A DNA stretch of 64,000 nucleotides from a virus. The notes beneath the pieces are model-generated. The model saw nothing but the letters and a program-made list of their open reading frames with translations. It was not told the DNA's origin and made no database searches. The stretch lies in the IMG/VR virus record IMGVR_UViG_3300017971_000276, positions 1 to 64,000 of that record. One strand, written 5' to 3'. Positions 1-28,744 of the stretch are shown piece by piece. The translations under genes and the position numbers were made by a program. Numbering within the stretch: the stretch's first letter is position 1; each line of letters begins with the position of its first letter.

Positions 1-231
1 GGTGGCACCCTACCACCACTACTTAATACTAGGTCTACCAAAATATTTTTCTTTTCTACTTCTCTTATAGATTTTTGTTTTTCAAAATCTTTTCTCTAAA
101 AATATATATTTCTCAATTTATCCCCTATATAGATCTTGACAATCTATCCGAGCGTGGCTATCTATATCATTATAACTATGGACAAATTGTCCTTAAGCCA
201 AATTGGCAAACATCTAATAGGAGGTGCAGAG

Positions 232-642
232 ATGAGAAAATCTTATCTAATCAGAGACTTACCATTATTATTCGACACATTTTTTCTTAAATGGCCTGAA
301 GCGGCGAAACCACCGATGGATAATTTCCCTATCCTTGACAGCGATGCTTCAAATGGCGAACAATTAAAAGGATGGGAGATTCAATTAGCTCTTGCTGGCT
401 TTACAGAAAAGGATGTAAGGGTTTGGTATGAAGGACAGACTTTACATATTGGAGGAGATAATAGTTCTAACGAAAATATTGGTAGTAAATTCTCTTGTTC
501 TTTTCATCATACCTTAGCTATTTCTAAAGATTTAGATCTAAAGGAGTCTGAAGTTTCTTTAAAAGAAGGCATCCTTTCTATTAAGATCCCGATAAATAGT
601 TCAATAAGAAAAGAGAATCATTTATTTGGTTCTTGTAAATAG
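232..642 (+). CDS. Small heat-shock protein (Hsp20/alpha-crystallin family)
   Basis: Motifs 'WEIQLALAGFTEKDVRV' and 'VSLKEGILSIKIP' are typical of Hsp20/IbpA. Start moved to ATG 232, which follows AGGAGGT (219-225) and is in frame with track ORF 136..642. Confidence 0.85.
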   Translation: MRKSYLIRDLPLLFDTFFLKWPEAAKPPMDNFPILDSDASNGEQLKGWEIQLALAGFTEKDVRVWYEGQTLHIGGDNSSNENIGSKFSCSFHHTLAISKDLDLKESEVSLKEGILSIKIPINSSIRKENHLFGSCK

Positions 643-680
643 CTTTGTCTTCCGATCTATCTTTCCTTTCTTAATTCTTG

Positions 681-689
681 TGCTATACT
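681..689 (+). promoter_or_regulatory. Putative extended -10 promoter (TGCTATACT)
   Basis: TGnTATACT in the AT-rich gap upstream of ORF 744. No clear -35. Confidence 0.45.
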
Positions 690-743
690 TAATTTAAGCG
701 AAAACCTTTTTGGGGGAGGGCCAACAAAAGGGAGGAATATAAA

Positions 744-1073
744 TTGACTGATACGGATGATAAGATTGCTGTTGCCATTAAGAGATCTCAACCTGATTGG
801 GCGAAGTGGATTGGCTTACTTTTGACAGTACTCTCTCTTACTGTAGCTGCTGTTGTGTGGGCGAGCACAGAACATTCTGATATTCGATCCTGGACAGCAG
901 ATCAAGACTATGTTACAAAACAAGAGTTAGAAAAGTCTTTTGAGAGACAATACGTACCAAAAGAAGATTTTTCTAGAGTAGAACAGAGTATTATTGATCA
1001 AAAAGAGGATATAAAAGAAATCAAAGATAAGGTTGACAAAATCTTTGAAGTTATCCACAGAAGAAACAGGTGA
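744..1073 (+). CDS. Single-TM membrane protein with C-terminal coiled coil (holin-like, uncertain)
   Basis: Hydrophobic run WIGLLLTVLSLTVAAVVW, then a heptad-rich tail and basic C-terminus. TTG start after a GGGAGG RBS. Confidence 0.5.
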   Translation: MTDTDDKIAVAIKRSQPDWAKWIGLLLTVLSLTVAAVVWASTEHSDIRSWTADQDYVTKQELEKSFERQYVPKEDFSRVEQSIIDQKEDIKEIKDKVDKIFEVIHRRNR

Positions 1074-1076
1074 TCT

Positions 1077-1361
1077 ATGAATGATCCTCGTAACGATACC
1101 CTACTAAAGTTAGCTTCCCTTAGAGACTCCCTAATACAGTTTGCCAAGCCCGAAGTCCTTAAAAAAATTCTAGACCTTTGTGAAGCTCTTGGCACCGATA
1201 GAAACTCATTCGTTAAACAGTTTAAGTTCTGGGCAGAGAAGAATGGTGAAGATTGTCGCTACGCTGCGATGGCCAAACAATTCTTTTTACAGGATCAAGC
1301 AGAAAGTGTTGCCAAACAGATAAATTGGCTCTATCATAACTGGAGCAAATATTATGAATAA
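1077..1361 (+). CDS. Hypothetical protein
   Basis: 94-aa ORF packed in the operon. No motif recognised. Confidence 0.6.
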   Translation: MNDPRNDTLLKLASLRDSLIQFAKPEVLKKILDLCEALGTDRNSFVKQFKFWAEKNGEDCRYAAMAKQFFLQDQAESVAKQINWLYHNWSKYYE

Positions 1362-1371
1362 GGAGAACAAT

Positions 1372-1842
1372 ATGGAACTTAGAAACAAACTTTGTCGTCT
1401 TTTAGAAATCGCGCAAGAAAAACTATCTCCGCCGAAACAGGATCTCAGTTTTGAAAGGCTGATCTATACAATGGGCTCTGCCGATCCTCGTCCCTTCTCA
1501 AAGCTTACAAAAGGTTATAATTCTTTCTCAGGTTGTGACATCAAAATTATCATAGATGGTAAAACATCTGCTGCAACACAAAGCCTTTGTTGCGACGAAT
1601 ACATCGATGAAGAAGGCAAGAGACAAGTATCAGGTTCTGCTTCTTTTATTGTTTTTGATAAACCTTTTGATTATCTTGGCAAAACAGTAAGACTTATCGC
1701 CAATGGCGCAGACGAGTATGGGAATTTCGCTACATTCTTTGATGAGGAAGTTACATTCATTTCTAAAAAATATGAGTTATCTATTGAGAATGTTGTGGTT
1801 GAAGAACACTATACTTTCAAAATGAAAACCAAAGATGAATAA
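1372..1842 (+). CDS. Rearranged paralog of the tail tube protein
   Basis: Shares IYTMGSADPR, GYNSFSGxDIK, GKRxxxGSxxFIxFD, xAxEYG and SIxxxVxExxYT with the tube at 26163..26837. Start at ATG 1372 after AAGGAG (track start 1354). Confidence 0.75.
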   Translation: MELRNKLCRLLEIAQEKLSPPKQDLSFERLIYTMGSADPRPFSKLTKGYNSFSGCDIKIIIDGKTSAATQSLCCDEYIDEEGKRQVSGSASFIVFDKPFDYLGKTVRLIANGADEYGNFATFFDEEVTFISKKYELSIENVVVEEHYTFKMKTKDE

Positions 1843-1891
1843 GAGAGTAAACCTCGTCAAAAAGACAGTAATTGCTTATAAGGAGAACAAC

Positions 1892-2161
1892 ATGTTAAAA
1901 CCGACCACTGATTGGATCCTAACCAAGCCTGTAGCACAAAAAGAGAAAGTAACCGACTCTGGTATTGTCCTTGTTACTAAAGAAGAGGATTCTACTAAAC
2001 TTGTTGAGATTGTTTCTTTTGGCCCCGGCGCAAACAAAGACTCCTCCTTGAAGGCAGGAGATATCGTAATGGTTCCAACTCAAACAGGCTATAAAGTAGA
2101 ATTCGATGGTGAAGCTTTCGAGATGGCCAAAGAACAAAACTTTCTAGGAGTTATTGAATAA
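1892..2161 (+). CDS. groES: Co-chaperonin GroES/Cpn10
   Basis: MLKPTTDWIL...KVTDSGIVL...EIVSFGPG...LKAGDIV...GYKVEFDGE...EQNFLGVIE follows the GroES pattern end to end. ATG 1892 follows AAGGAG. Confidence 0.9.
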   Translation: MLKPTTDWILTKPVAQKEKVTDSGIVLVTKEEDSTKLVEIVSFGPGANKDSSLKAGDIVMVPTQTGYKVEFDGEAFEMAKEQNFLGVIE

Positions 2162-2550
2162 TGAATAGAAAAAGAATAGATCCCATGAAGTATCCTCTAA
2201 AAGAAGGAGAGTCATGGTGGATAGTACATCCTAATCAAAAGGGTGTAGAGTTCAAAGTTCCTTCAGGAGGAGTAACAGTCTGTACTTCAGACTTCCTAGA
2301 CTTCAAACAGAATACTGTTTATACAATCCTGGGTAATGATCCTCATAATGGTTGGATTACACTCCAGTCTTCTATTGAAGTTGTTGAGATGCCCTACTAT
2401 CTATTTGCAAGATACTTTGATGCAGAAGCCTTTGTTAGAGGTATTCTTAATGATCCTACAGAGCTTGAGGGAGCAGAACCGTTTAACTATAGACCGACCC
2501 TCCCAAAAAAGCCGAGCCAACAAATCGAGCTATTTGAGGATGTAAAATAA
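2161..2550 (+). CDS. Hypothetical protein
   Basis: 129-aa ORF with TAATG stop/start overlap at both ends. Confidence 0.65.
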   Translation: MNRKRIDPMKYPLKEGESWWIVHPNQKGVEFKVPSGGVTVCTSDFLDFKQNTVYTILGNDPHNGWITLQSSIEVVEMPYYLFARYFDAEAFVRGILNDPTELEGAEPFNYRPTLPKKPSQQIELFEDVK

Positions 2551-3104
2551 TGCTAGATATTATGAGATTTTTAAATCCTATTCAATTAAAATTTGTGACT
2601 TCTGAAGATACTTGTGTATCTCTTCTTGGGAAGCGTAGATCAGGAAAAACATATACAGCTTTATATACGGTACTTTATCAGATGCTTACTAAAGAAAATA
2701 TTTCTGTAGTTTATGCTGGGCCATACAAGACGCATGTCGATGTCTTCTTCTCTTCTCTCAAGTCTATATTATCTGAATTAGAAGTAGAAGTTGTCAAAGA
2801 TATTAAAGCTCCGTATTATGAGTTGCGTCTTAGTAATGGAAGTCGTATTCGTGGGTTCTCAACTGCGAGTGGAGTTGCTGCTAAAGGTCAAGATGCTGAT
2901 TTGATTCTGCTTGAAGAAGCACAAACGATAGATAAGTTATCTTTTATGGGAATCTTTCTTCCTATGTTGCATTCTAATCCAAAGATTAAGATTAGAACTA
3001 TTGGTACTTTTGATGAATCTACAATTGCAGACAATGCTCTGTTTTCTTCGTTATTTATTTACAATAACAAACAAATTGTTCTTCCTTTGGAAGGTGTGAG
3101 ATAA
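2550..3104 (+). CDS. Stand-alone terminase-ATPase-like protein (short TerL paralog, no nuclease domain)
   Basis: LNPIQ (Q motif), GKRRSGKT (Walker A), APYYELRLSNGSRIRGF, GQDADLILLEE (Walker B). Aligns with the N-terminal half of TerL 8081..10009. Confidence 0.8.
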   Translation: MLDIMRFLNPIQLKFVTSEDTCVSLLGKRRSGKTYTALYTVLYQMLTKENISVVYAGPYKTHVDVFFSSLKSILSELEVEVVKDIKAPYYELRLSNGSRIRGFSTASGVAAKGQDADLILLEEAQTIDKLSFMGIFLPMLHSNPKIKIRTIGTFDESTIADNALFSSLFIYNNKQIVLPLEGVR

Positions 3105-3105
3105 C

Positions 3106-3903
3106 ATGGGTGGATCTGGTTCAGGAAAGCCTAAAGGCGAATTACTTAGATTAGATGGCCATGAGCTTATTGATGGCAAGATTCAGAAGTCTAAATTCTT
3201 TGATTTTTTAGGGATGGATTTATCTGACTATAGTAATGTTACTATGACTCCAGAACAAGCTCTTAAATTTAAGAATACTGTTGTCAGGATGAAGTATGGA
3301 GTTGCTGCTGCGATCCCAATGATTTGTGGCGGACCAAAGTGTCCGAATAAACTTTGTGCATTTCATGATGGAGGTGGTTATCCTTTAGGAAAACAATGTC
3401 TCTATGAGGTTCGTATGATTCAAGCTCTGACACGAAGTTATATGGAAGACTTGGCAGTTGATCCAGATAGTCCTTCTGAAATGACTCTTATTAATAAATT
3501 AGTCGAATGTGATTTGATTGATTATCGCGCCAACCTTGGCCTATCAGGTGGCGTAGATGAAGAAGCAGCAACTCTTCTTTCTACGTCAGTTGTGGATAAT
3601 GGCAAAACGATGTCTGAGTCTATAGCAGTTCATCCTCTTCTAGATGCTAAAGATCGAGCTAATAGAACTCGTATGCAAATACAAGATGCTTTTGCTGCTA
3701 CACGTAGAGAGAAATATAAAAAAGCTGCAGCTCTTAAAAAGTCAGAAGATACAGATGCATCTACCTTCCTTGCCGAAATCAAGTCTGTATTTGAGGAAAC
3801 TCCTCAGCAAGCAGTCTCATCTCTTGATAAAATTAAAGAAGACGCTAAGAAAGTGTCTGAAGATCTTTCAGTCGTAGATGTAGATTGGAGTGCTGATGAA
3901 TAG
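3106..3903 (+). CDS. Cys-cluster phage protein (possible terminase small subunit)
   Basis: CxxxxCPxxxC...C cluster, helical and basic C-terminal half, HPLL motif, upstream of TerL. The TerS role is inferred from position only. Confidence 0.4.
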   Translation: MGGSGSGKPKGELLRLDGHELIDGKIQKSKFFDFLGMDLSDYSNVTMTPEQALKFKNTVVRMKYGVAAAIPMICGGPKCPNKLCAFHDGGGYPLGKQCLYEVRMIQALTRSYMEDLAVDPDSPSEMTLINKLVECDLIDYRANLGLSGGVDEEAATLLSTSVVDNGKTMSESIAVHPLLDAKDRANRTRMQIQDAFAATRREKYKKAAALKKSEDTDASTFLAEIKSVFEETPQQAVSSLDKIKEDAKKVSEDLSVVDVDWSADE

Positions 3904-6734
3904 TGCTAAATCTTTTTGGAATATCGTCTCTTGCTGGCTCTGGTTATCGAGGGCCAAATCCATGGCTTAATCCTACTTATAACCAAGCAGAAGATATTGA
4001 ACGCTATAAAATGATGCGTGCTTCTAAGCTTGGGTCTTCAGAAGCAGAACTATATAAATACTACACTCAGAAAGAAGAAGCTCCAGAGTGGCTTTCCGCA
4101 ACAGCTAGTGCAGGTAGTGCTCTTCACTTACTAGAAGAAGCAAAAGCAGTTAAAGAAGGCAGAGTGAATGCAGCAGAAGAATTTCTCTATGATCCGTCAA
4201 CAATGACAACTGGTCATATTGATATTACTTATCGTTCTGGTGCACCAGCTGATATTAAAACTGTTTCTGCTAAAAGATTTGCTCAAGTCCGGCAACAAGG
4301 TGCATTTAAGAAACATGTTCATCAGTTAAATTGGTATATGAACCAAAAGAACTCTGAAACTGGTTATCTTGAATATATTAATCGTGATGATACTTCTCAG
4401 AGACTTACTCTTGAAATTGGCTATGATCCTGCAATGTATGAGAGAGACATGGAAAAAGTCTCTAGAGTTCGTCGTCGAGTTGAAAGAGAAATTGAAGCTG
4501 GAATATTAAATGAGGATATGCTTCCTAAAACTGCATCTTTAGAAAGATTACAGGAAGCAGCAATTGAGGAAGCTGGTCAGGCTCTTGAAAATACTAAAAG
4601 GATTCCTTATTTAGAGAAGGTTTATCAAGAAGAGATGGACTATCTCAATTCGGTTTCTGCTAAACGAAATCTTCGTAGATCACAGAGAAGATATCAAGGA
4701 TCAAAAGACCAAGTAGCTCAAGGCGGTCAAAGGTGGAGTGGCAGAGATGACAACTATAATACAATTGAAGGTCTTCGTCACGGTGGTGCAGCAGAACACG
4801 TAAGAAAGTCATTAACTGCTTTTGGTTCTGGTTATCAGCGGAATGTCTCTTTGATTCATGTTGCAAAAGGTACTGATACTAGCGAAATTGAAAGAGAAGG
4901 TCTCCTTCCAAGTAAAACAGAGAAAGGTCTTGCTGGAGATGCAGTATATGCAACAACCAAAGAATGGTTCTCTCAAGCTACAGAAGAACAAAAATCTGGA
5001 TTAGGAATTCCTTATGGTTCGGCTTTTGAGTTTAAGGTAGATCCAAAAACTGTATCTGCTGGATGGTCAGAAGGTGGATTCTTTGGGTTGTTCCCGGAAT
5101 ACAAACAAGAAGCTCTTTCTTCTTTCTTGCAAAGAGAAGACAAGCCAGATATTTATGAAGTTACTGTCCCTTATAAAATTAATCCTAGTCAATTAAAGAA
5201 AATCTCTCCAAGAGAATCAAATGAGATTAGTACTGATGAATCTTCTTTCTCTGGTCTTGATGCCATTAAATATGGCGCAAGTGCAACAATGTTATATGCT
5301 GGGCTGACAGCAAAGAATATCCCTTTTAGGGACAGAATGGAAAAGATAGTTGGTAAGAAAGCAGCTCCGTTTGTAACAAAAGCGCCTGCTGCAATTTGGT
5401 TAAGTAATGAAATGCTTTCTCTTTCTACTGATCCTTCGTTAGAAAATGCTGCTCGTTTTGGATTGGGAGTAGCAGGGTGGGAATTAGGAATGAGACAAGG
5501 TACGAAATTAGGCGAGCGATTAGCAAAAGGGAAACATAAGGGTATACCAGGTGTTATTGGTCATATAATGGCTCCTATTGCGTCTAGTGCTTTGTCAAGT
5601 TTATTTAAGCCTTCTAATAGGCCAATTGAAGAGATTGAAGGTTTGCATCCTGGCTCAGAAGGCCTTGGAACTCAATCAGTTCGAGAAATTAGTGCTTTTG
5701 GTTCTGGGTTCGATGCTCTTAAGTCATATCTCCAAAATGAGACGGTAACAAAAGGCAAAAGAGCTTTCTTCTCTGGTCCACAGAAAGAATATGCTGGTTC
5801 TGAGTCTATTATCTCTAGTGCTTTTAGTGGAAGAGATGATGCATATAATACTATTGAAGGTTTACATCCAGGGTCAAATGGGATGGGAGCTTCTTCTATT
5901 AGAAGTCTTACTGATTTTGGTTCTGGTTGGGATCCTCTTAAAGCATTAGCCAGGAACATATTTAAAGATGTAGATAAAGACCAGGCTTTTAAGAAATTAG
6001 TTGGATCTTCAGAATTTCAATCTGCATTAGAACAAGCGACTCAGAAAGGTATTATTGGAGAAGGCATGTTTGGGTCTGTAAGGAAGATGGAGGGAGTTTT
6101 TAGAGGTAAGAAATTTACCTTCGCTAGAAAGACTGGAGAGATTGGGGAACAAGAAGTAGCTGCTATGCGAGCTGCAGAATCTACAGTTGCACCTTCCGTT
6201 TATTCTGCAAAGCCTGGTCAAATCGATATGGAGTTATTTTCTGGCAAGACATTAGGTGAATTAGCACCTAAAGATATTTCTGCACTTGAAGGAAAAGTTA
6301 CTTCTGCTTTTTCTAAAATTCATAGAGCGGGATACGAACATGCAGATCCTCATCTTGGAAATGTGTTTATTACTGATAAAGATCAAATTGGTATTATTGA
6401 CTTTGGTAATGCAAGAAATCTAGCAGAAGTAGGAGGGACTAATGCTGCTAGTGGAGATATTGATATTGTCTCTAGGCTTATTAAAGCTGCTTCAGAAGAG
6501 AAGTCTCAGTTGGCTGCTATTGATCCATTTGCTGCAGCTGATCCGTTTGCTGCTCAACAAGTAGGTTTGCAGGATGTAATGGCTCAACTTCCTGATCCAG
6601 CAATAGACAAAGCAAGAGCTAAAAGAATGAAGAAATTCCGACAAGTGAGTACAGATGCTGTTGGTATTGGCCATAGAGCAGCTTATAAAGCAGGTAGAAA
6701 ACATTCTGGGTTTAGATCAACAGAATCAATGTAG
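3903..6734 (+). CDS. Multi-domain polyvalent protein: PD-(D/E)xK nuclease + ART-like + membrane segment + Ser/Thr kinase, joined by repeated linkers
   Basis: Nuclease: GSALH...GHID...DIKT...HQLNWYM. ART-like: LIH...IEREGLLP...VYAT...YEV. Kinase: GEGMFGSV...K...E...HADPHLGN...DFG. Three linker repeats. Confidence 0.75.
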   Translation: MLNLFGISSLAGSGYRGPNPWLNPTYNQAEDIERYKMMRASKLGSSEAELYKYYTQKEEAPEWLSATASAGSALHLLEEAKAVKEGRVNAAEEFLYDPSTMTTGHIDITYRSGAPADIKTVSAKRFAQVRQQGAFKKHVHQLNWYMNQKNSETGYLEYINRDDTSQRLTLEIGYDPAMYERDMEKVSRVRRRVEREIEAGILNEDMLPKTASLERLQEAAIEEAGQALENTKRIPYLEKVYQEEMDYLNSVSAKRNLRRSQRRYQGSKDQVAQGGQRWSGRDDNYNTIEGLRHGGAAEHVRKSLTAFGSGYQRNVSLIHVAKGTDTSEIEREGLLPSKTEKGLAGDAVYATTKEWFSQATEEQKSGLGIPYGSAFEFKVDPKTVSAGWSEGGFFGLFPEYKQEALSSFLQREDKPDIYEVTVPYKINPSQLKKISPRESNEISTDESSFSGLDAIKYGASATMLYAGLTAKNIPFRDRMEKIVGKKAAPFVTKAPAAIWLSNEMLSLSTDPSLENAARFGLGVAGWELGMRQGTKLGERLAKGKHKGIPGVIGHIMAPIASSALSSLFKPSNRPIEEIEGLHPGSEGLGTQSVREISAFGSGFDALKSYLQNETVTKGKRAFFSGPQKEYAGSESIISSAFSGRDDAYNTIEGLHPGSNGMGASSIRSLTDFGSGWDPLKALARNIFKDVDKDQAFKKLVGSSEFQSALEQATQKGIIGEGMFGSVRKMEGVFRGKKFTFARKTGEIGEQEVAAMRAAESTVAPSVYSAKPGQIDMELFSGKTLGELAPKDISALEGKVTSAFSKIHRAGYEHADPHLGNVFITDKDQIGIIDFGNARNLAEVGGTNAASGDIDIVSRLIKAASEEKSQLAAIDPFAAADPFAAQQVGLQDVMAQLPDPAIDKARAKRMKKFRQVSTDAVGIGHRAAYKAGRKHSGFRSTESM
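4734..4835 (+). repeat. Linker repeat copy 1 (WSGRDDNYNTIEGL...FGSGY)
   Basis: Peptide and DNA similarity to 5823..5930, including an identical tttggttctggtt. Confidence 0.85.
5634..5711 (+). repeat. Linker repeat copy 2, partial (IEGLHPGS...FGSGF)
   Basis: IEGLHPGS is identical to copy 3 and the copy ends in FGSG. Confidence 0.8.
5823..5930 (+). repeat. Linker repeat copy 3 (FSGRDDAYNTIEGLHPGS...FGSGW)
   Basis: Full-length copy upstream of the kinase domain. Confidence 0.85.
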
Positions 6735-6743
6735 TGCTATAAT
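6735..6743 (+). promoter_or_regulatory. Putative extended -10 promoter (TGCTATAAT)
   Basis: Perfect TGnTATAAT in the gap before ORF 6786, followed by an AAGGAG RBS. Confidence 0.6.
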
Positions 6744-6785
6744 ATAGAAAGATATAATTTCTATTTTTAAGGAGTGTGAAAATAT

Positions 6786-7262
6786 ATGTTTGGAAAATTA
6801 CTTGCAGGAACATTAGGCGGTGCTGCTATTGGTGGTCTTTATGGAGCTTCTGGAGGAGGAGGAATGGGTGGAGCTATCGGAGGGGCAGTAATGGGAGGAG
6901 CTTTTGGTGGAGCTGGATTTCGTGCTGCTCGTAGATTTGGTGCTGCCAGAGGGATGAGTATAGCAGGAGGAATGAGAAGAGGCTTAGAGTCTGGTATTCG
7001 AGGAGCTAGATGGGGCAGAGGCAAGCTTACTGGTGTCGCAGCAAGATCTCTTGTTGGAGGTGCTGGGTATGGTGGAGTTGCTGCTGGATATGGTGCAGAT
7101 CTTACAAGAGCAGCTGGGATGGGAATGGCTACTGCTCGTGGTGCTATTGGACGTAATGCTACTGCTGTAAATAAATATGGTGGTATGGCACTTGGCGCAA
7201 TAGGCACAGCTTCTGCTGCTCATATTGGATCTTCAATTATGGCTTCTAATAGAGGGTACTAA
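6786..7262 (+). CDS. Gly/Ala/Arg-rich glycine-zipper protein (putative internal virion/ejection protein)
   Basis: Repeated GGAxxG motifs and a good RBS. Function inferred. Confidence 0.55.
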   Translation: MFGKLLAGTLGGAAIGGLYGASGGGGMGGAIGGAVMGGAFGGAGFRAARRFGAARGMSIAGGMRRGLESGIRGARWGRGKLTGVAARSLVGGAGYGGVAAGYGADLTRAAGMGMATARGAIGRNATAVNKYGGMALGAIGTASAAHIGSSIMASNRGY

Positions 7263-8029
7263 TGCAATGGTTTGATGCTAATCCTCATGGACCGAATGCT
7301 GGTATTCGTGGGGACTTAATGTGGGAAATTCATGAGGGGGCCAGAGGGATGTTTCCCTCTTCCTTCGCTCGTGGAGGTACTTTTGCAACAACTGCTTTTG
7401 CACCAACAGCTTCAGAAGCGTTTAAGTCTCCTTGGAGAAAATCTATCAAACATGGAAGTCCTCAGCATATCGAGAATCTTAGAAGAATGCAGCGTGCCGA
7501 TCCTGGTAATGAAAGAATAACAAATCAGATAAAGAAAGCGGAGACCAAAAGTGCAAAGTTTGCATTAGGTGGAAGAGTCGCTAGATTCGGTTTAGGATTA
7601 GGAATGGTAGGAATACCAGCGTTTGCAACGCCTGGTGGCATTCAAGAGAAAGGGAAGGCTGTCGCGGCTAGTCTTGTCGGTCAAGTCGGCTGGGAATTAG
7701 GATCTAAAGCAGGGATGGGGATTGGAGCAGCATTAGGGAGTGTTATTCCTGGTCTTGGTACAGCAATTGGTGCTGGGGTAGGTTTCCTTGCTGGCGGCTT
7801 CCTAGGTGCTTATGGTGCTGAAGAAGCGGCATATGGGGTTATGGGAGTTTCAGACAGGATGGTAGAAAGAGAAAGATCTCGTCGTCGTCTTAATTGGAAA
7901 GGTGACACAACTGCTTTTATGACAAGAAGCGCGCATACAATGAGACAACAATCTCTACAAGCAATGAATAGAGGTCAAATGACTGCACGTTCAATGTTAG
8001 GTAGAGAAGGAGTAATGCTCCATCAATAA
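7262..8029 (+). CDS. Glycine-zipper membrane-type protein (putative internal virion/ejection protein)
   Basis: GAALGSVIPGLGTAIGAGVGFLAGG glycine zipper of the kind seen in tape-measure and pilot proteins. TAATG coupling. Confidence 0.6.
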   Translation: MQWFDANPHGPNAGIRGDLMWEIHEGARGMFPSSFARGGTFATTAFAPTASEAFKSPWRKSIKHGSPQHIENLRRMQRADPGNERITNQIKKAETKSAKFALGGRVARFGLGLGMVGIPAFATPGGIQEKGKAVAASLVGQVGWELGSKAGMGIGAALGSVIPGLGTAIGAGVGFLAGGFLGAYGAEEAAYGVMGVSDRMVERERSRRRLNWKGDTTAFMTRSAHTMRQQSLQAMNRGQMTARSMLGREGVMLHQ

Positions 8030-8080: not shown

Positions 8081-10009
8081 ATGAAAGATGAATTAGCAGA
8101 TCTTAGAGAAATGGACTTGCCATTTGATGTTGACGAAGTAATTCCTCAATGTCATGAATGTGTTCGTAGTCAAATCAAAAAATACAATAAACATGTTCTT
8201 GATGGCAAGGTTGTAGGGCGTAAATTCTTAGTTCCATGTACAGGGATTAAGAAAGAGCTTATTTCTCCGATGGAGAAGGCAACTAAAACAGATGATCAGT
8301 TAGGTATTCTTCGTGCAGTTAGAGACAAAGTAGAATTTGCTAAAATGTTCGCTCGTTTACCAGGGAATCTTCCTTGGGTTGCTAGATGGTATCAAGAGCA
8401 AGTGCTTAGATGTACTTCACGTCGTAAAGTTTTAAGAATTGGGAGACGAACTGGCAAAACAGATAGTGTATGTATGGAAATTCTGTTTAAGTTGTTTACA
8501 AGTTCAGATCGTAAAATTTTTGTAACTGGCCCACAGAAAGTGCATGTCGAAGAGATCTTTACTCGTGTTCGTGGTTTTATTGCTGCGAATCCGGTTCTTA
8601 AAGATTCTGTTGTTAGAGATGTAGCTGCTCCTTATTATGAAATCAAAGTTAGGAATGGTTCTCGTGTTCGTGGCTTTGCTGGAGGGGCTAAAGGCAAGAA
8701 GGAAGGCCTTGCAGGTCGTGGGCAAGATGCTGACGATATTTATTGCGAGGAAATGGATTATATTGATGAGACTGCTCTCCGTGGCGGTATTTTCCCTATT
8801 CTCCACACCTCTCCTAATACTTCTCTTTGTGGTTTCTCTACTCCCACAGGCTTTAAGACTCCTTATTATGCTTTGTGTGAAGAAAGTCCTCATTATAAAG
8901 AATTCCACTTCACATATAAAGTTCTACCTTGGTGGAAACAAGTTGAAGGAGAAAAGAGTTCTTTTACAGAAGAAGAATGGACACATGAGTATTTAGCAGA
9001 ATGGGGAACTTCTGAGTCTGGTGTTTATAAGCCAGCATATATAGATCGAGCTTTAGCTGATTACACATATGAAGGGATTAATAGAAATCCTTCGTGGAAA
9101 TATACAATTGGGACTGACTGGAACGAAAAACATGGTACTGAGATTGTGGTTCTAGGCTTTAATCCTTTCACAAATAGATTCCAAGTTGTAGATGCTCTTC
9201 ATGTAGAAAGCTCTGAGTTTACGCAGCTGACTGGTGTGTCTAAACTGCTTGAGATGAATCGCAAGTGGAGACCACATTTTATATATATTGATGCTGGGAA
9301 TGGCAGTACTAACTATGAGCTTTTAAGGAAAACTGCATATGAAAATATGCGTAGGGATGGAGACAGAGACACTGCTAACTTATTGAATATGCTGAAGAAA
9401 TATGACGCAGGAGCTTCTATTGAGATTCGGGATCCTGTTACTTCTCAAAAGAAGAAAAGCCCTGCTAAACCATTTATGGTAAATGCTTCTGTTCGTTTAT
9501 TTGAGCAAAATAAAATTAGGCTATCGGCTCATGATCATATTCTTGAAAAACAACTAAGAAGTTACATTATTGAAAGGATTACGCCCACAAAGACTCCTGT
9601 CTATGGGCTTGAAGATCCTAAAGCAAAAGATCATAAATTAGATGCTTTAAATTTAGCAATAGTTGCATTTCAGTTAGAATTTGATAGTCTACATACTAGG
9701 AATGTTAATACTCAAGTTGCATCAGTGCCAGACCCAAGGACTTTAAAGAATCAACAATCTCAAGATGAGAAAGAAAGATTTGCGACTCCACAAGAAAGAA
9801 GACTAGATGGTGGCTTTGAAAAAACACTTGTTGAAGAACAGCTATTTGCATCGACACCTGCTAGAATAGATAATGGTCTTGATGGAATTCGTACTAATAG
9901 ACCGGGATGGTCTACAGATGAAGAGGATTTACATATCCAAAGGTTTTTACAACGTAGGCGTGGTCGACAATCTATTAGAAGAAATCGGCCAACAAGATCA
10001 AATTTCTAG
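8081..10009 (+). CDS. terL: Terminase large subunit
   Basis: Walker A GRRTGKT, NGSRV, Walker B IYCEE, coupling motif FSTP, EYLAEW linker, RNase-H nuclease residues IGTDW, YIDAG and DHKLDA. Confidence 0.93.
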   Translation: MKDELADLREMDLPFDVDEVIPQCHECVRSQIKKYNKHVLDGKVVGRKFLVPCTGIKKELISPMEKATKTDDQLGILRAVRDKVEFAKMFARLPGNLPWVARWYQEQVLRCTSRRKVLRIGRRTGKTDSVCMEILFKLFTSSDRKIFVTGPQKVHVEEIFTRVRGFIAANPVLKDSVVRDVAAPYYEIKVRNGSRVRGFAGGAKGKKEGLAGRGQDADDIYCEEMDYIDETALRGGIFPILHTSPNTSLCGFSTPTGFKTPYYALCEESPHYKEFHFTYKVLPWWKQVEGEKSSFTEEEWTHEYLAEWGTSESGVYKPAYIDRALADYTYEGINRNPSWKYTIGTDWNEKHGTEIVVLGFNPFTNRFQVVDALHVESSEFTQLTGVSKLLEMNRKWRPHFIYIDAGNGSTNYELLRKTAYENMRRDGDRDTANLLNMLKKYDAGASIEIRDPVTSQKKKSPAKPFMVNASVRLFEQNKIRLSAHDHILEKQLRSYIIERITPTKTPVYGLEDPKAKDHKLDALNLAIVAFQLEFDSLHTRNVNTQVASVPDPRTLKNQQSQDEKERFATPQERRLDGGFEKTLVEEQLFASTPARIDNGLDGIRTNRPGWSTDEEDLHIQRFLQRRRGRQSIRRNRPTRSNF

Positions 10010-19041: not shown

Positions 19042-20304
19042 ATGGGTAGAAAGCAAATCGATCATGAAGTAGCCTTCGGCGACAGTTATGAGGTATTTCT
19101 TGATACATGGCTAAGCAATGGATTCAACAAGCCAACACAAACTCAGCTTGAATTCAATGATATTATGGCCACACCAAATGCCGCATATTGGATGCCGAAA
19201 GTAGTCGAAGATATCGTTCGCGAACCTGTTGAGCCTATGCTAATTGTTCCAAGTCTTTTGGATCGGATTCAGTATACCCCAGCAGCACGGATTACCTTCC
19301 CTGCAATTGGAGCCTTAGTGGCTTACGATCTGGGCGAAGGCCAATCATATCCCGAACAGCAGCTGAATGTAGCACCTGGTTCTATCACTATTAATGTGGG
19401 AAAAACTGGTGTTGCCTTCAAGATTACTGAAGAGATGAGAAAGTATTCTCAGTTTGACGTAATCAATATGCACATCCGTGCAGCTCGTCGGGCTCTTGAT
19501 CGTCATAAAGAACAAAAAGGTATGAATTACATTACCTCTATGGGTGTTACTTTGTTTGACAATCTAACTCCAACAAGTTCTGTTTATGGGACATGCACAG
19601 GTCGCTCTATTACAGGTTCTGGTAACGGTTCTTGTCGCATGGAAGATCTTCTAAAAGCATATGCACATATTATGATGCAGGGTTATACCCCTGACACCAT
19701 TCTAATGCATCCCCTCACATGGTCTATGTGGATGGCTGATCCTCTGCTTCAAACCATCGTGAAGAATACTGGTAATGGTTCTTGGTTCCAACCACACAAT
19801 ATACCGAAGTCTGGTCTGCCATGGGCAAATGCTTCGCAGAACAAGATGGGTATTAGTAGTGGATATGGACAGTTTACTCCAACTGGGAATGCAGGGTCTG
19901 AGACTCCTAGTACTGTTTCTGAAATTGATCAGAATCTAAATTCTGCCCCAGTAATTCCAAGTTACTTCCCACATCCATTACGTGTACTCGTTAGCCCCTT
20001 CGTTCCATTTAATGTGCACAATAACACTTGTGACATGATGATCTTTGATTCTCAGAATCTTGGCGCTCTCGTTGTTGATGAGGACGTTAGTATGGATCAA
20101 TGGGAAGACATGGCTACTGATATCACAAAAGTGAAGCTGAAAGAACGTTATGCATTCGCTATTTATGAAGATGGTCTGGCCATCGGTGTTCTTAAGAACA
20201 TCCCAGTTAAAGCAAATGAGATTGCTCTACCCGTTAGTGCAACTATTTCTGCTGCTGGTTCACTCGATGATATCGATACCACAACTGCTATCAGCGGACT
20301 ATAA
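19042..20304 (+). CDS. Major capsid protein (HK97 fold)
   Basis: MPKVV..IVRE, GEGQSYPE, KTG..FKITEEM, PDTILMHP, KLKERY. Strong AGGAGG RBS and a downstream terminator. Confidence 0.9.
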   Translation: MGRKQIDHEVAFGDSYEVFLDTWLSNGFNKPTQTQLEFNDIMATPNAAYWMPKVVEDIVREPVEPMLIVPSLLDRIQYTPAARITFPAIGALVAYDLGEGQSYPEQQLNVAPGSITINVGKTGVAFKITEEMRKYSQFDVINMHIRAARRALDRHKEQKGMNYITSMGVTLFDNLTPTSSVYGTCTGRSITGSGNGSCRMEDLLKAYAHIMMQGYTPDTILMHPLTWSMWMADPLLQTIVKNTGNGSWFQPHNIPKSGLPWANASQNKMGISSGYGQFTPTGNAGSETPSTVSEIDQNLNSAPVIPSYFPHPLRVLVSPFVPFNVHNNTCDMMIFDSQNLGALVVDEDVSMDQWEDMATDITKVKLKERYAFAIYEDGLAIGVLKNIPVKANEIALPVSATISAAGSLDDIDTTTAISGL

Positions 20305-24254: not shown

Positions 24255-26141
24255 ATGGCATATCCAAATCTTCCAGGAGTAAAACTTTCTAAGAATGATG
24301 GGAATTTGGCTCCTACAGCAGCAGCGAGAGCGCCTCGTGTATTAATTATTGGTACTGCTGGCCAAGGTCAGGGCGATGAACTATTCTTAGTTCCTACAAC
24401 TTCTCAGGCCAAAAGTGAGTTTGGCAATGAAGGAACTTTAATTCGCGGCATGTGGGAAGCTCTTAAAACAGGAGCTGAGGAAGTCGCTCTATATCGTATT
24501 GGTTCTACTTCTGCAGTCCTAGACCATGTTGGTGATTCTGCTGGTTCAGCAGGATATAGGATTGAAACAGTAACTCAAGATGCATCTGCAGGAACAGATT
24601 ATGCTTTGTATTTTGACGATACCTCAGATCGATTGGTTGTTCGGCGCAATACTGACAATCTAGTTGTTTGGGATAACAACCCGTCTAACCCTATTGATCT
24701 ATTTGAAGTAGTAGTGAGTGGGTATAGAGCTGCAGCAGGTGGGCCAGATATTGGTTCTGCTTCCGGTTTTATTAACCTTGCTAGTGTTGATCCGTCAACA
24801 TATGCAGGCACAGAATTTACTGCAGGCACAGATGGCTTAAGTCTTTCTAGAATGGAAATGTATGAAGAGCTATATGTTGCTTACAAGAATCTAATGTCTG
24901 AAGCATTTGATGTTATTGTTCCAATGGATGTCTATTTAGATGACTATAATATAGTTAATCAAGGACACTTTAAAGGAGCAGTTTCTCCTGTAATCCCAGT
25001 CGGTCAGCAATATCCGACAGCTGGAGCATTCTCTCCTACTGTTGATGTTGACTCTCTTGGTAAAGTTTTTGTTGAAGAGTATGAAGGCGAATTTTATTTC
25101 TGGTGGGATACTGATGGAGATGGCGTTGCAGAGGTATTTCCTACTCCAGCAATTGGGTCTTCTAGCTCAACAACAAAGATTGATGGAACGACTTTAACAA
25201 CTGCTGATTTCCATGAAGTTAACTTCGGTTATCAGCTATCTCGTTTTCTGTATGACTATAGTGAAGAGATTGTTGACGCAACTGGTGTTATTGGTGTCCT
25301 TCCTCCCGACAGTAATTCTCTGCGAGATAGAGCTCGTTGGTTAGGACAAGATCCAACATGGACATTAAACACAAACACAGGAGAATATTACATTGCTGCT
25401 CCATCTGCAAATGGGACTGGCTTACTTGGTAATAAGTTTATGGTTGGCCGTTTTGATCATAGAAGCGGAGCGTTTGGTGGCGGAATGATCCTAACTGATA
25501 CTCAGTTTATGGATGGAACAGAACAAGTTGATGACAATAGTATTGCTGTTGATCTTGGTAAATACATTTCTGTTGTTTCTGAGACTGCATTCTTAAGAAA
25601 CAATTGGTATCCTGCTGGCTATCGTGCATCTATTGCATCTTCATATGCAGGATTTTATATTGGTCTTCCTCCATCAAGTGCACCAACGAATAAAAACATT
25701 TCTGGTTCTTCTATCATTTATAAAATGGCAATGGGAGCCTATGATAGTCTAACTGGTGCAGGCTATGTCTCATTACGGAATCGTCCACTTGGTGGAACCG
25801 TAGTAACAGATGCGCCAACAGCAACTCTGCCAAATTCTGACTGGAGACGTTTGTCAACAGTGCGGATTGTTAAAGAAGTTGTAGACAGAATTCGTTCTGG
25901 TCTTGATCCGTTTATTGGAGAAGGAACTGGTGCTTCTGTACGCGCAAGTATGGAAAGTGTTGTCGGAGAGATTCTCCTGCAAGCAAAACGAGATGGCTAT
26001 CTGCAAGATTATAAGGAGTTTAGTATCATTCAGACTCCTCAACAAGAAGTTCTTGGCGTCGTTGAAGTCAATCTGACATTGATTCCAGCGTTTGAGATTC
26101 GCCAGATTAATCTAACAGTTTCACTAAGCAAGTCTGGCTAA
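24255..26141 (+). CDS. Contractile tail sheath protein
   Basis: LPGV start, VLIIGTA..G, FG.EGTL, RLSTVRIV..V...IR....FIGE, V.LTLIPAFEIRQI end. Confidence 0.92.
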   Translation: MAYPNLPGVKLSKNDGNLAPTAAARAPRVLIIGTAGQGQGDELFLVPTTSQAKSEFGNEGTLIRGMWEALKTGAEEVALYRIGSTSAVLDHVGDSAGSAGYRIETVTQDASAGTDYALYFDDTSDRLVVRRNTDNLVVWDNNPSNPIDLFEVVVSGYRAAAGGPDIGSASGFINLASVDPSTYAGTEFTAGTDGLSLSRMEMYEELYVAYKNLMSEAFDVIVPMDVYLDDYNIVNQGHFKGAVSPVIPVGQQYPTAGAFSPTVDVDSLGKVFVEEYEGEFYFWWDTDGDGVAEVFPTPAIGSSSSTTKIDGTTLTTADFHEVNFGYQLSRFLYDYSEEIVDATGVIGVLPPDSNSLRDRARWLGQDPTWTLNTNTGEYYIAAPSANGTGLLGNKFMVGRFDHRSGAFGGGMILTDTQFMDGTEQVDDNSIAVDLGKYISVVSETAFLRNNWYPAGYRASIASSYAGFYIGLPPSSAPTNKNISGSSIIYKMAMGAYDSLTGAGYVSLRNRPLGGTVVTDAPTATLPNSDWRRLSTVRIVKEVVDRIRSGLDPFIGEGTGASVRASMESVVGEILLQAKRDGYLQDYKEFSIIQTPQQEVLGVVEVNLTLIPAFEIRQINLTVSLSKSG

Positions 26142-26162: not shown

Positions 26163-26837
26163 ATGGCACTACAATCGGCATTCACAAGAGGCTATAATAG
26201 CTTCTCAGGCGTGGACATTAAGGCTGTTATCGGTTCTAATGTAATCGGTAGCATCCAAGGTATTTCATACCAAGTGTCCCGTGAAAAAGCTCCTATTTAT
26301 ACAATGGGTAGCGCAGATCCACGAGCATTTGCTAGAGGCAAACGTGCAATTGCTGGTTCTTTGGTCTTCATTCAGTTTGATCATGAACCACTAATGTACG
26401 AACTAGCAAACCCTGATCCTAAAGAGGAGAGCAGAAGACTTTATTTCTTGTCTGATATTGATGACCTTCGTCCTGAATATCGAGCAGGAGAAAGAGTTGA
26501 AGTTGCGACAACAGGAGTAAGCCCAGTATCAGCAGAAAGCACAAATGTACCTGGTGCTAATATTGGCCAACAAGAGAGTAATATTACAACTGCAGGGTCT
26601 GATCAACAAAAGGCATTACCTTGGTACGCAGATCAGATTCCGCCATTTGATGTCGTTTTAGGCGCAGCAAATGAGTATGGCGCATTGTCTATTATGAAGA
26701 TTCTTGGTTGTGAGCTTATGAACTCTGGATATGGTGTCTCTATTGATGATATCGTTTCCGAACATAGCTATACATATATTGCTCATGGTCTATTGCCATG
26801 GGTAAGCCAAGGTGTTCATGAAGACATGTTAGGCTAA
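26163..26837 (+). CDS. Tail tube protein
   Basis: Follows the sheath. SFSGVDI, REKAPIYTMG, RGKR.IAGSL.F, DQIPPFD, ANEYG, SIDD...E..YTY. Confidence 0.85.
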   Translation: MALQSAFTRGYNSFSGVDIKAVIGSNVIGSIQGISYQVSREKAPIYTMGSADPRAFARGKRAIAGSLVFIQFDHEPLMYELANPDPKEESRRLYFLSDIDDLRPEYRAGERVEVATTGVSPVSAESTNVPGANIGQQESNITTAGSDQQKALPWYADQIPPFDVVLGAANEYGALSIMKILGCELMNSGYGVSIDDIVSEHSYTYIAHGLLPWVSQGVHEDMLG

Positions 26838-26909: not shown

Positions 26910-27830
26910 ATGATCAGTTATCGCGCACCATTAGATAAAGGTCTTGTCGCATACGATGAAGGTGGAAGGGTCATAGGTCCTGTTAGCAATGCTACAGCTT
27001 CAGAATACTTAGGTTGGGGAAGCTATTCTGGTGCTGATATTAAAGTAATTGTGCATTATCCTAGAGATTTTAGCGCAATAAAACTTCTTAACGAAGACAG
27101 AAGAAAACATGAAATGGATTTATTCCAACTTGATAATCAAATAGCAGTACTTCAAAATACTGTAAATGCTTATCAAGGATCTCTTTCTGACAATCAAGTT
27201 ATTCAGTTAAATGATAGAAGAGCGGCAGTAACAAGCCAACTTGAACTAATTGACAAAGAGATTGTTAAGGCTAAAAATATTCCTACCTCAAAAGTTATTG
27301 GTGAGCTTCAAACAATGTCTTATAGTGTGTATCGTGAGAAGTCACCTGTTAGAACCCTTGGTTCTGTATATCCAAGAGCTTATGTTCGCGGCCCAAGAAC
27401 TATTGGTGGCTCAATGATTTTTACTGTGTTTAATCAACATGTCCTTCATGAGATTCTAGAAATGAATCTAAAGTTCTATAACACAGGAACTAGTGATCAT
27501 GACAAATATACTTATTCTACAAATCTTCCAGATCAGCTTCCTCCACTAGATATGAGTCTAGTGTTTGCAAATGAGTATGGTTCTATTTCACATATGGGCT
27601 TGTATGGTGTAGAATTTATGCAAGAGGGAACAACATTCTCTATCGAAGATATTTTTACTGAGAATGTAGTGCAGTATGTAGCAAGGGATATAGATCCAAT
27701 GAGACTAGTAAGCAAACGAGAAGTTGATGGTCAGGGAGTAAAAGATGAATGGAGTTCTACTGCCTCCTCTTTGTTAAAGAATAAACAGTTTAAAAACAAT
27801 CATTTAGTCAGAAGGAATCAATTTATTTAA
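26910..27830 (+). CDS. Tail-tube-fold paralog (tube initiator-like) with coiled-coil insertion
   Basis: SYSGADIK, REKSPVRTLG, RGPRTIGGS, DQLPPLD, ANEYG, SIED match the tube motifs. Confidence 0.8.
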   Translation: MISYRAPLDKGLVAYDEGGRVIGPVSNATASEYLGWGSYSGADIKVIVHYPRDFSAIKLLNEDRRKHEMDLFQLDNQIAVLQNTVNAYQGSLSDNQVIQLNDRRAAVTSQLELIDKEIVKAKNIPTSKVIGELQTMSYSVYREKSPVRTLGSVYPRAYVRGPRTIGGSMIFTVFNQHVLHEILEMNLKFYNTGTSDHDKYTYSTNLPDQLPPLDMSLVFANEYGSISHMGLYGVEFMQEGTTFSIEDIFTENVVQYVARDIDPMRLVSKREVDGQGVKDEWSSTASSLLKNKQFKNNHLVRRNQFI

Positions 27831-28744
27831 TGGCACTTAGAGATCAAAATGGCAATTATGTTACTCCTCATGGCATTGGCTCTTTTGCTTATGAATATGA
27901 CTGGTTTAGTGGCTCTCAGATTGGAGTCATGATTGGCGATGTCTTGATTGATAGTGGTGTCGCTATTAGTTTCAATGTAGAGCAGACAAAGACTCCTGTT
28001 TATGGATATGCCAACCAATATTATACTTTTGTCTCTGATGGCCATGTGCTTGTTCAAGGTGTTTTAACTATCGCCTTTAAAGAGGCAGGATACCTTTTAT
28101 GGCCAATGCAAAGATACCAAGAGAAAATTGGAAATATCAATTCTGTTAGCGATGAAGAGAATTGGCACCAAAGACATGGCGCTAATGTTTGGACGAGTCC
28201 TAGATATTCAGTTGACTCAAATGGTAATATAATCAATTCTTATAACCCAAGCGAAGTAGGAACAAGTTTAACAGCAGCCGCTAAAGCAGCCAGACGTAAA
28301 AAGGTAATGGAAGCTAATGTAGAACAAATGTTTGGCTGGCAAGAATCTTCTGTTCAGAATAGACAAAATAAAAACTTTAATCGATTCTGGCAAGAACTTG
28401 GTGCTCTTCCTGATGATGAATTTGAAGACTGGGCAGAAGTATTTGAAGATGCCATTTGGTATGGTTCTGATGCTGCTAACCCAACTGTTAGAGATAAACT
28501 CTTTTCAAAAAACTTACCTTATGATAAAGAAATAACTGATGAGAATGTTTTGCGCCATAGAAGAGCAGACCAATATCCACAAATTGATATGTGGATTGTT
28601 TATGGCGATATGTCTCGTCAACCAGCGAATCATACTGTCAAGAAAATTCTTGATCTGTCATTTACTGGCCAGTCTCAAACTATTGAGATTTCTGGTCAGC
28701 CTATATATGAGCAATATAATTTTATTGCTAGAAACCTAGTTTAA
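27830..28744 (+). CDS. Tail-tube-fold paralog (tube initiator-like)
   Basis: FSGSQI, KTPVYGY, G.V.VQG.L.I.F, DQYPQID, E.YNFIAR. Confidence 0.7.
   Translation: MALRDQNGNYVTPHGIGSFAYEYDWFSGSQIGVMIGDVLIDSGVAISFNVEQTKTPVYGYANQYYTFVSDGHVLVQGVLTIAFKEAGYLLWPMQRYQEKIGNINSVSDEENWHQRHGANVWTSPRYSVDSNGNIINSYNPSEVGTSLTAAAKAARRKKVMEANVEQMFGWQESSVQNRQNKNFNRFWQELGALPDDEFEDWAEVFEDAIWYGSDAANPTVRDKLFSKNLPYDKEITDENVLRHRRADQYPQIDMWIVYGDMSRQPANHTVKKILDLSFTGQSQTIEISGQPIYEQYNFIARNLV

Follow-up and report, generated by a model that had tools for sequence, protein, structure and literature searches.

Two reduced paralogs in a conserved gene block

The 64-kb window analysed here (positions 1 to 64,000 of the IMG/VR virus record IMGVR_UViG_3300017971_000276) carries, set among conserved genes two of which encode the chaperone-type proteins Hsp20 and GroES, two short genes that resemble parts of the phage's own assembly genes: a stand-alone ATPase core of the large terminase TerL (hereinafter mini-TerL) and a shortened, rearranged paralog of the tail-tube protein (hereinafter mini-tube) (Table 1). 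An earlier note on this DNA had taken both for self-copies. BLASTP of the 47 plus-strand open reading frames (ORFs) and tblastn against the full 72,927-base contig bear this out, in that exactly 2 of the 8 ORFs in the segment 136-3903 have a second match. The Hsp20 and GroES genes placed beside the copies in that note are equally well founded, both exceeding the Pfam cut-offs. The further suggestion that the neighbouring ORFs o1077 and o2161 are mimics of other genes fails, since each has one syntenic match in G001 and in G002 and no second match in the contig.

Comparison with related loci by tblastn and ORF maps reveals a co-directional block that in relatives runs Hsp20, o744, o1077, GroES, o2161, o3106. 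In L004, a 140-kb contig with about 80% protein identity to the window, the end of o1077 (3951) adjoins the start of GroES (3958) and the end of o2161 (4698) adjoins the start of o3106 (4701); in L002, whose complete 197.7-kb genome has terminal repeats, the block is likewise contiguous and free of mini genes. Both mini-TerL and mini-tube are therefore absent from the syntenic block of L002 and L004, and L018, in which o2161 and o3106 are adjacent, is devoid of mini-TerL as well, so that the genes are patchily distributed among relatives and, as the earlier note had supposed, accessory and not universally conserved. Searches of whole related records agree: the mini-TerL query detected only the full TerL in G001-G004, including the complete 197.7-kb genome, and the mini-tube query, run on the 7 records G001-G007, detected only tube-type genes in 5 and had no match in G004 and G006. 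Moreover, close relatives with a tube 92% identical and a TerL 85% identical carry neither mini gene, and the mini-tube ORF lies 24 kb away from the sheath gene, not beside the tail genes. Thus, mini-TerL and mini-tube are optional accessory cassettes inserted into a conserved co-directional block.

Table 1. Genes and repeats of the window that are discussed in the text (aa, amino acids; cut-offs are those of Pfam)
Feature	Positions	Strand	Description and matches
Hsp20	136-642	+	Hsp20-type small heat-shock protein, first gene of the block; Pfam HSP20 E 2.9e-8, 34.2 bits (cut-off 20.8); phrog_432 E 1e-9
o744	744-1073	+	conserved small protein with one hydrophobic stretch; 83% identical in L004, 44-50% in L002 and L023
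o1077	1077-1361	+	conserved 94-aa core gene; 82% identical in L004, 53% in complete genome G001
17-bp direct repeat, left copy	1358-1374	+	ATAAGGAGAACAAYATG; ribosome-binding site and start codon; borders the mini-tube insertion
mini-tube	1372-1842 (frame open from 1354)	+	156-aa shortened, rearranged tube paralog; BLASTP match to 26163-26837
17-bp direct repeat, right copy	1878-1894	+	directly before the GroES start
GroES	1892-2161 (probable start; frame open from 1835)	+	GroES/Cpn10-type co-chaperonin; Pfam Cpn10 E 1.5e-11, 44.6 bits (cut-off 21.1); phrog_3188 E 8e-13
o2161	2161-2550	+	conserved 129-aa core gene; 56-70% identical in L002, L004, L018, L023
mini-TerL	2550-3104	+	184-aa stand-alone TerL ATPase core; BLASTP match to TerL 8081-10009
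o3106	3106-3903	+	conserved 265-aa core gene downstream of the mini-TerL slot; 64-84% identical in L018, L019, L021, L023, L004
TerL	8081-10009	+	full-length large terminase, parent type of mini-TerL; phrog_2 E 1e-31
capsid	19042-20304	+	matches capsid PHROGs
tail sheath	24255-26141	+	phrog_16991 E 7.5e-67; Pfam Phage_sheath_1C 26.6 bits (just below cut-off 26.9)
tail tube	26163-26837	+	224 aa, parent type of mini-tube; directly after sheath; 74-92% identical in relatives

Architecture and divergence of the two paralogs

Mini-TerL aligns only to TerL residues about 100-290, the equivalent of T4 gp17 161-334, with 37% identity over 124 aa to TerL residues 122-245 (E 3e-27 to 5e-27 in BLASTP and tblastn). 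In mini-TerL, 10 residues follow the match, whereas TerLs run about 350 residues further. The Q motif, Walker A (GKRRSGKT), Walker B (DLILLEE) and the C-motif region are all retained; the lid, the nuclease and the first ~100 residues of TerL are missing, so that the term 'nuclease-less' used in the earlier note is apt. Of the properties that define a TerL, mini-TerL has the ATPase core, and it has neither the nuclease domain and length of about 450-700 aa nor a copy in every relative. Its Pfam scores fall just under the gathering cut-offs (Terminase_3 / Terminase_6N, 23.0 vs 23.2 and 21.8 vs 22.0 bits). A single-sequence AF2 model was unusable (predicted local distance difference test score, pLDDT, 34), and the Atlas model was used in its place; this model, with a predicted template modelling (TM) score of 0.82, superimposes on the ATPase part of full-length TerL clusters with a TM score of 0.88 and on a 189-aa cluster with TM scores of 0.82/0.78.

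A word-index search for relatives of mini-TerL recovered only the query itself, and an exhaustive search of representatives yielded 219 proteins at E <= 1e-3. The best matches are TerLs of the same lineage (P0004, 40% identity, E 5e-17) and short proteins; one of the latter, P0006 (194 aa), aligns to mini-TerL residues 7-171 with an E value of 5e-16. Among the 149 listed non-self matches, 38 are no longer than 300 aa, and several short TerL-like proteins lie inside contigs of 58-128 kb and hence are not contig-end fragments. The short proteins share the lineage TerL signature RDVxAPYYE, NGSRxRGF, GQDAD and I(L/F)PxLHxxP (alignment A1), begin about 100 residues later than TerL and end 4-45 residues past the ATPase core; the profile of the family matches T4 gp17 161-334 with an E value of 8e-9. 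The catalytic residues of Walker A or Walker B are lost in 11 of 20 mini-TerLs (GK[ST] of Walker A is kept in 13, and GK[ST] together with the [DE]E of Walker B in 9). By comparison, Walker B is intact in all 84 full-length TerLs examined; the P-loop stretch is broken in 11 of these 84 rows, several of which end in HN|T, and we read such rows as TerLs with an intein inside the P-loop. GenBank phages gave mini-TerL matches to full TerLs only (9 records), the IMG/VR scan with mini-TerL itself returned no relative and a degenerate motif pattern 0 matches, and a GTDB genome scan with the family member P0013 found nothing.

Mini-TerL changes rapidly. P0006, which is encoded in L023, is only 32% identical to the mini-TerL of the window, compared to 56% and 68% for the flanking genes and 73% for TerL. 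The number of nonsynonymous substitutions per site (dN, Nei-Gojobori method) between the window and L023 is 0.86 for mini-TerL, 0.21 for TerL, 0.26 for o3106 and 0.44 for o2161, that is, the amino acid change of mini-TerL is about four times that of TerL. Nevertheless, the proportion of nonsynonymous differences in mini-TerL (pN, 0.51) is below that of synonymous differences (pS, 0.71). The earlier note had described the two paralogs as intact ORFs with synonymous divergence from the parent genes. The second half of this description does not hold, given that the protein identity to the parents is about 35-37% and blastn detects no DNA similarity for either gene. The first half does: frames of this kind would stay open without selection with a chance of only about 1e-5 and 8e-7 for the two mini genes, respectively. 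Furthermore, the codon usage of both is like that of the rest of the phage and their ribosome-binding sites are intact. The best reading of the open frames, and of pN < pS in mini-TerL, is that the mini genes are selectively maintained.

Phylogenetic analysis with IQ-TREE (LG+C20; 60 core segments, 147 columns) recovered a branch (Shimodaira-Hasegawa-like approximate likelihood ratio test value of 95) that sets 20 short proteins apart from the other segments, with lineage TerLs as the nearest full-length rows. These 20 were chosen after a FastTree analysis of 117 rows, in which 7 short proteins nested among full-length TerLs and were omitted as probable fragments; the long branches of the short proteins call for caution. 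A tree that unites the mini-TerL of the window with the subclade of its own TerL is not rejected by the approximately unbiased test (p 0.449), and mini-TerL is no nearer its own TerL (37% identity) than those of relatives (33-39%). Recent self-duplication is not favoured by these comparisons, and a single old origin followed by fast change, repeated origins or transfer between phages may each account for mini-TerL.

Mini-tube shows about 35% protein identity to the tube (E 8e-7 to 9e-8 in BLASTP and tblastn) and differs from it in the order of its parts. Residues 37-50 of mini-tube (IYTMGSADPRPFSK) correspond to tube residues 45-58, with 11 of 14 identical, and are placed ahead of a block that matches tube residues 5-73; within this block, a 15-aa gap lies exactly at the normal site of the moved piece, in full agreement with the 'rearranged' paralog of the earlier note. 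Tube residues 74-160 are missing, and the C-terminal third (tube 161-205) then follows. Conservation is concentrated in two motifs, IYTMGSADP and GYNSFSGxDIK, with 11/14 and 13/19 residues identical to the tube (68-79%) against about 22-27% in the rest of the protein; even the conserved 14-residue piece is identical in only 27 of 42 DNA positions. Thus, mini-tube has neither the canonical strand-hairpin-core order of a tube nor the adjacency to the sheath and the conservation in relatives that mark the tube gene.

The same transposed order is found in P0003 (221 aa, 30% identity to mini-tube), and a profile of the two proteins detected P0157, P0158 and P0159 with E values of 7e-41 to 6e-23, compared to about 1e-10 for ordinary tubes. 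All five family members lack the hairpin at its normal place as well as the central insert (alignment A6) and begin with a stretch that aligns to the predicted N-terminal helix of the window copy, and in four of the five (P)IY(T/K)xGS(A/P)DP precedes FTKGYNSFSG. In P0003 and P0157, the moved strand is preceded by an additional, degenerate version of the first motif, which suggests a partial N-terminal tandem duplication with subsequent loss of the second hairpin. An AF2 model based on a 23-row alignment (pLDDT 71.4) consists of a helix at residues 2-17, a low-confidence region at 21-55, which includes both conserved motifs, and a confident beta-sandwich at 58-151. Foldseek matches of this model include the tube of phage 812 (8q01, TM 0.42), Hcp, VgrG and a monocin tube. 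Sequence searches with mini-tube returned no match in the PDB, Pfam, PHROGs or GenBank phages, and the IMG/VR scan found no relative of P0003. A predicted complex of tube and mini-tube scored 0.26 against a mark of 0.32, in a run without controls.

An insertion hot spot and its genomic setting

The boundaries of the mini-tube insertion, which spans 1372-1891, are the two copies of the 17-bp direct repeat. The repeat ATAAGGAGAACAAYATG has 2 matches in the 64 kb, even with 2 mismatches allowed, where 0.08 are expected, and none of 100 shuffles reached 2. The repeat copies therefore fix the starts of mini-tube and GroES at ATG 1372, which is preceded by AAGGAG, and ATG 1892, respectively; the latter is also the probable GroES start by comparison with the L004 homolog, which begins MLKPT. 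No comparable repeat flanks mini-TerL. However, mini-TerLs occupy two locations: in L023 and L024, P0006 takes the position that mini-TerL has in the window, flanked by the homologs of o2161 and o3106, and in L025 and L026, P0012 (261 aa) is encoded immediately upstream of TerL, whose start it overlaps. Moreover, L019 has an HNH endonuclease gene (1-324; phrog_3377, E 3e-31) in the mini-TerL slot, its end immediately upstream of the o3106 homolog, and in L023 a different 133-aa ORF stands at the position of mini-tube, with two extra ORFs before o2161 (none of the three has a Pfam or PHROG family). The mini-gene slot is an insertion hot spot, and the repeat around mini-tube, the two locations of mini-TerL and the HNH gene in the same slot indicate that the mini genes are mobile.

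Intein-like inserts are another feature of this lineage. The o3106 homolog of L022 (808-1710) contains an in-frame insert of ~300 aa that starts with C and ends in HN followed by C; we read it as an intein, although Pfam and PHROGs give no match, and its presence suggests that o3106 is important to the phage. The TerL of L004 (8195-11383) is a single frame of 1,062 residues with a 416-residue insert at residue 222 that has weak, below-cut-off Pfam matches to Intein_splicing and LAGLIDADG; the TerL of L025 (10767-13976; 1,069 residues) has an in-frame insert at residue ~222; and the TerL of L006 (246-3311) is interrupted near residue ~128. Many of the 149 listed mini-TerL matches (P0004-P0152) are 1,000-1,900 aa long. 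These frequent in-frame TerL inserts, too, are read as inteins. A link between mini-TerL and inteins was considered and rejected: the TerLs of both L004 and L025 have the insert and only L025 has a mini-TerL, and the window and L023 show the reverse combination.

The remaining genes of the block are conserved to different extents (Table 1). Homologs of Hsp20 are present in L004, L025 and L023, the latter with two tandem Hsp20-like genes (2690-3706) in place of the one in the window. For o744, only weak Pfam and PHROG matches were obtained, those to Pfam being below the cut-offs, and for o3106 no Pfam or PHROG family was found. In runs X1 and X2, from the same samples, a 2,921-base contig of a related strain matches positions 939-1059 of the window and resumes from 2191; this strain may lack o1077, mini-tube and GroES. 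No variants were observed inside either mini gene in two DNA runs kept as contigs only, which is uninformative on selection at the population level.

The window, in which all large ORFs are on the plus strand, is the first part of the 72,927-base contig, which has no terminal repeat. A TerL-based scan identified 8 related IMG/VR loci (L001-L008; best-segment identity 54-77%) on contigs of up to 197,730 bases; given these contig sizes and the presence of sheath, tube and capsid genes, the window is a fragment of an uncultured giant myovirus. Its TerL is most similar to the annotated TerLs of Moorella MTATph1, Acinetobacter ME3 and Bacillus 0305phi8-36 (25-32% identity in tblastn), and positions 1-8000 of the window have no DNA match among GenBank phages. 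The tube gene is identified by four features, namely position after the sheath gene, size, strong conservation (with >100 relatives, about 200-235 aa long) and the weak fold matches of its paralog. It is the first of three tandem tube-like paralogs (26163-26837, 26910-27830 and 27830-28744; 224, 306 and 304 aa; pairwise E 1e-24 and 5e-4). PHROG 9206 calls these paralogs 'major head protein', which looks like a mislabel because the gene at 19042-20304 matches capsid PHROGs. Directly upstream of TerL, in the usual place of the small terminase gene, are two small glycine-zipper-rich proteins (6786-8029); a small terminase was not recognised in any part of the window. The 943-aa protein encoded at 3903-6734 combines an N-terminal Cas4-like nuclease match (phrog_1706, E 4e-8) with a C-terminal kinase-like match; its homologs in relatives are 455, 741, 1,289 and 1,518 aa long and have short repeated segments in common.

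Possible functions of the reduced paralogs

The nearest described counterpart of mini-TerL is T4 vs.8 (NP_049732, 219 aa, phrog_1488), which is likewise a short stand-alone homolog of the terminase ATPase with Walker A and B motifs and is reported to be encoded in a non-structural accessory region, to have no known function and to activate Avs2 (PMC13601566). On comparison of the sequences, vs.8 is an analogue rather than a family member. It matches phrog_1488 with an E value of 1e-78, whereas mini-TerL, P0006, P0012, P0013 and P0020 never do, matching instead phrog_7579, phrog_2, phrog_675 or phrog_5989; a profile comparison of the mini-TerL family with vs.8 (hhalign) gives only 90.7% probability with 15% identity over 84 columns; and the mini-TerL family, unlike vs.8, bears the motifs that mark its own lineage of jumbo-phage TerLs. 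With TerLs of the T4 gp17 type (Pfam Terminase_6N; PDB 3ezk, 2o0h), mini-TerL shares the ATPase core, but in addition to its missing domains it differs in being dispensable in relatives and in the frequent loss of catalytic residues. Similarly, mini-tube may resemble tube and Hcp proteins (SPP1 gp17.1, 6yeg; phage 812, 8q01; Hcp1, 5xhh) in its predicted beta-sandwich core, with weak fold scores, and differs from them in the N-terminally moved hairpin strand, the deleted central insert and the new N-terminal helix. Homing endonuclease, intein and moron cassettes are comparable in that they are inserted between conserved genes and are patchy among close relatives; unlike in homing-endonuclease cassettes, the cargo here consists of reduced copies of the phage's own assembly proteins. 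Literature searches, as judged by titles and the openings of abstracts, brought up no report of a terminase or tube paralog that acts as a decoy.

Each mini protein lacks parts needed for the job of its parent, namely the nuclease and the lid in one case, and the in-place hairpin and the central insert in the other. Given that the mini genes are patchy, mobile, fast-changing and often catalytically dead, we tentatively propose, at somewhat less than even chance, that both are non-assembling binding mimics that act by competitive occupancy in biological conflict, directed against either host sensors or rival phages. A binding role would fit better than an enzymatic one because a Walker motif is lost in 11 of the 20 mini-TerLs. 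Under this proposal, the two proteins would mimic two abundant late proteins by binding instead of performing the parental function. Mini-TerL, as a bare nucleotide-binding core, could be a target of any factor that recognises the ATPase core of TerL, and would be unable to cut DNA or complete a motor. Mini-tube would keep the tube beta-sandwich and the two most conserved contact motifs, with the hairpin strand relocated to a flexible arm at the N-terminus and the central insert deleted; with these changes, it should bind the partners of the tube without supporting tube extension. The partners could be host sensors of monomeric TerL or tube proteins or, alternatively, assembly proteins of co-infecting relatives, two possibilities that the sequences do not rank.

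Several observations weigh against competitive occupancy. The mini-TerL of the window retains all catalytic motifs and so may be an active ATPase. The TerL ATPase domain alone is described as a strong activator of EcAvs2 and the TerL-ATPase-like vs.8 of T4 as toxic together with EcAvs2 (PMC13601566), and DSR2 is described as sensing, and being activated by, the monomeric tube (PMC11087589). For a copy reduced to the ATPase, the role of trigger is therefore no less probable than that of decoy, and a mimic could be a liability rather than a shield. As regards rival phages, a poison of tube assembly would also hit the phage's own tails because the tube is 74-92% identical among relatives. The dN/dS check proposed in the earlier note also provides less than was hoped: the higher dN of mini-TerL and its pN < pS stand, but pS is 0.58-0.76 in every gene compared between the window and L023, i.e., synonymous sites are saturated, and therefore no meaningful dN/dS can be computed. 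Finally, P0003 and P0157-P0159 are all on contigs of only 877-5,202 bases, and the assignment of the mini-tube fold is tenuous: the best Foldseek match is the SPP1 tube 6yeg (E 6e-3, TM 0.36; range of TM scores 0.36-0.46), with 0 fold matches at E <= 1e-3 in the PDB and BFVD.

A narrower form of the same proposal, which we regard as rather doubtful, is that the mini proteins are anti-defence decoys that occupy the ligand sites of TerL sensors (Avs1-3, Upx-like) and tube sensors (DSR2, Avs16-like) without activating them. The statements of the earlier note on sensing by DSR2 and Avs1-3 and on the inhibitor DSAD1 agree with the published accounts (PMC11087589, PMC13601566), and the patchiness, fast evolution and frequent catalytic inactivity of the genes are what would be expected of decoys. 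Moreover, Avs16 is reported to contact the tube at its conserved beta-hairpin (PMC13581612), the exact element that is rearranged in mini-tube. DSAD1 of SPbeta-like phages, a small accessory protein, inhibits DSR2 by occupying the site of the tube (PMC11087589), although it can be likened to mini-tube by mechanism only and is not described as a tube homolog in the accessible text of that report. However, the activation of EcAvs2 by ATPase-only TerL and by vs.8, and that of DSR2 by the monomeric tube, argue for the opposite outcome, and the Pfam and PHROG matches of the mini proteins include no anti-defence family, these searches not extending to a dedicated anti-defence library. A still more specific variant, which we consider unlikely, is that a terminase-core mimic and a permuted tube mimic, the latter with the sensed hairpin on a flexible arm, form a matched self-mimic pair that antagonises bacterial pattern-recognition receptors; each mimic would fill the ligand pocket of the TerL or tube sensor without the oligomerisation that fires the sensor.

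Turning from conflict to the phage's own assembly, mini-tube might restrain tube subunits or a chaperone until baseplates are ready, and mini-TerL might tune the oligomerisation of TerL, both being co-expressed with the Hsp20/GroES block. The location in a chaperone-containing co-directional block, in which promoter and terminator scans gave no signal above shuffles, would suit such modulators, as would the overlap of the L025 mini-TerL with the TerL start and the tube contact motifs retained in mini-tube. Yet close relatives with nearly the same tube and TerL do without both genes, and the fast divergence of mini-TerL is unusual for the partner of a slowly evolving protein, so that we give this explanation, too, a fairly low probability. 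Distinctly less likely is the possibility that the two are domain-reduced paralogs with new jobs, mini-TerL as a small active ATPase on DNA or RNA and mini-tube as a minor tail or baseplate protein. The complete set of ATPase motifs in the mini-TerL of the window is compatible with such a role, and reuse of the tube fold is common in terminators, initiators and hub domains, parts that are represented among the fold matches of mini-tube; nonetheless, over half of the mini-TerL family is devoid of catalytic residues, and mini-tube is far from the tail genes and absent from relatives with the same tail module. That the mini genes are functionless hitch-hikers, i.e., terminase and tube fragments of other phages that recombined into an intein/homing-endonuclease hot spot and have yet to decay, is highly improbable, for although the slot is such a hot spot (the HNH gene of L019, the intein-like inserts in TerL and o3106 of relatives and the extra ORFs of L023) and the flanking direct repeat suggests a recombination event, an unconstrained frame should have been broken at about 35% identity (with the chances given above), the same odd architectures recur in independent contigs, pN is below pS in mini-TerL and the ribosome-binding sites are intact.

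The locus is thus real and more structured than first seen, and competitive occupancy by non-assembling mimics is the hypothesis that we offer for its function. It now comprises two definable families, about 20 mini-TerLs and 5 shortened mini-tubes, 4 of which have the moved strand, and both families have clear architectures and insertion sites as well as natural pairs with and without the gene. Furthermore, the uncharacterised vs.8 of T4 is hereby linked to an independently evolved giant-phage counterpart. Escape from bacterial sensors that recognise conserved folds in terminase, portal, capsid and tube proteins is considered difficult, as the targets can change little. If the proposal is correct, extra copies of these targets in reduced form would offer a means to evade fold sensing, or else a weapon against related phages. 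Should the antagonism of pattern-recognition receptors prove true in particular, this would be the first case in nature in which a virus meets the structure-based sensing of its core proteome with cut-down versions of the very proteins that are sensed.

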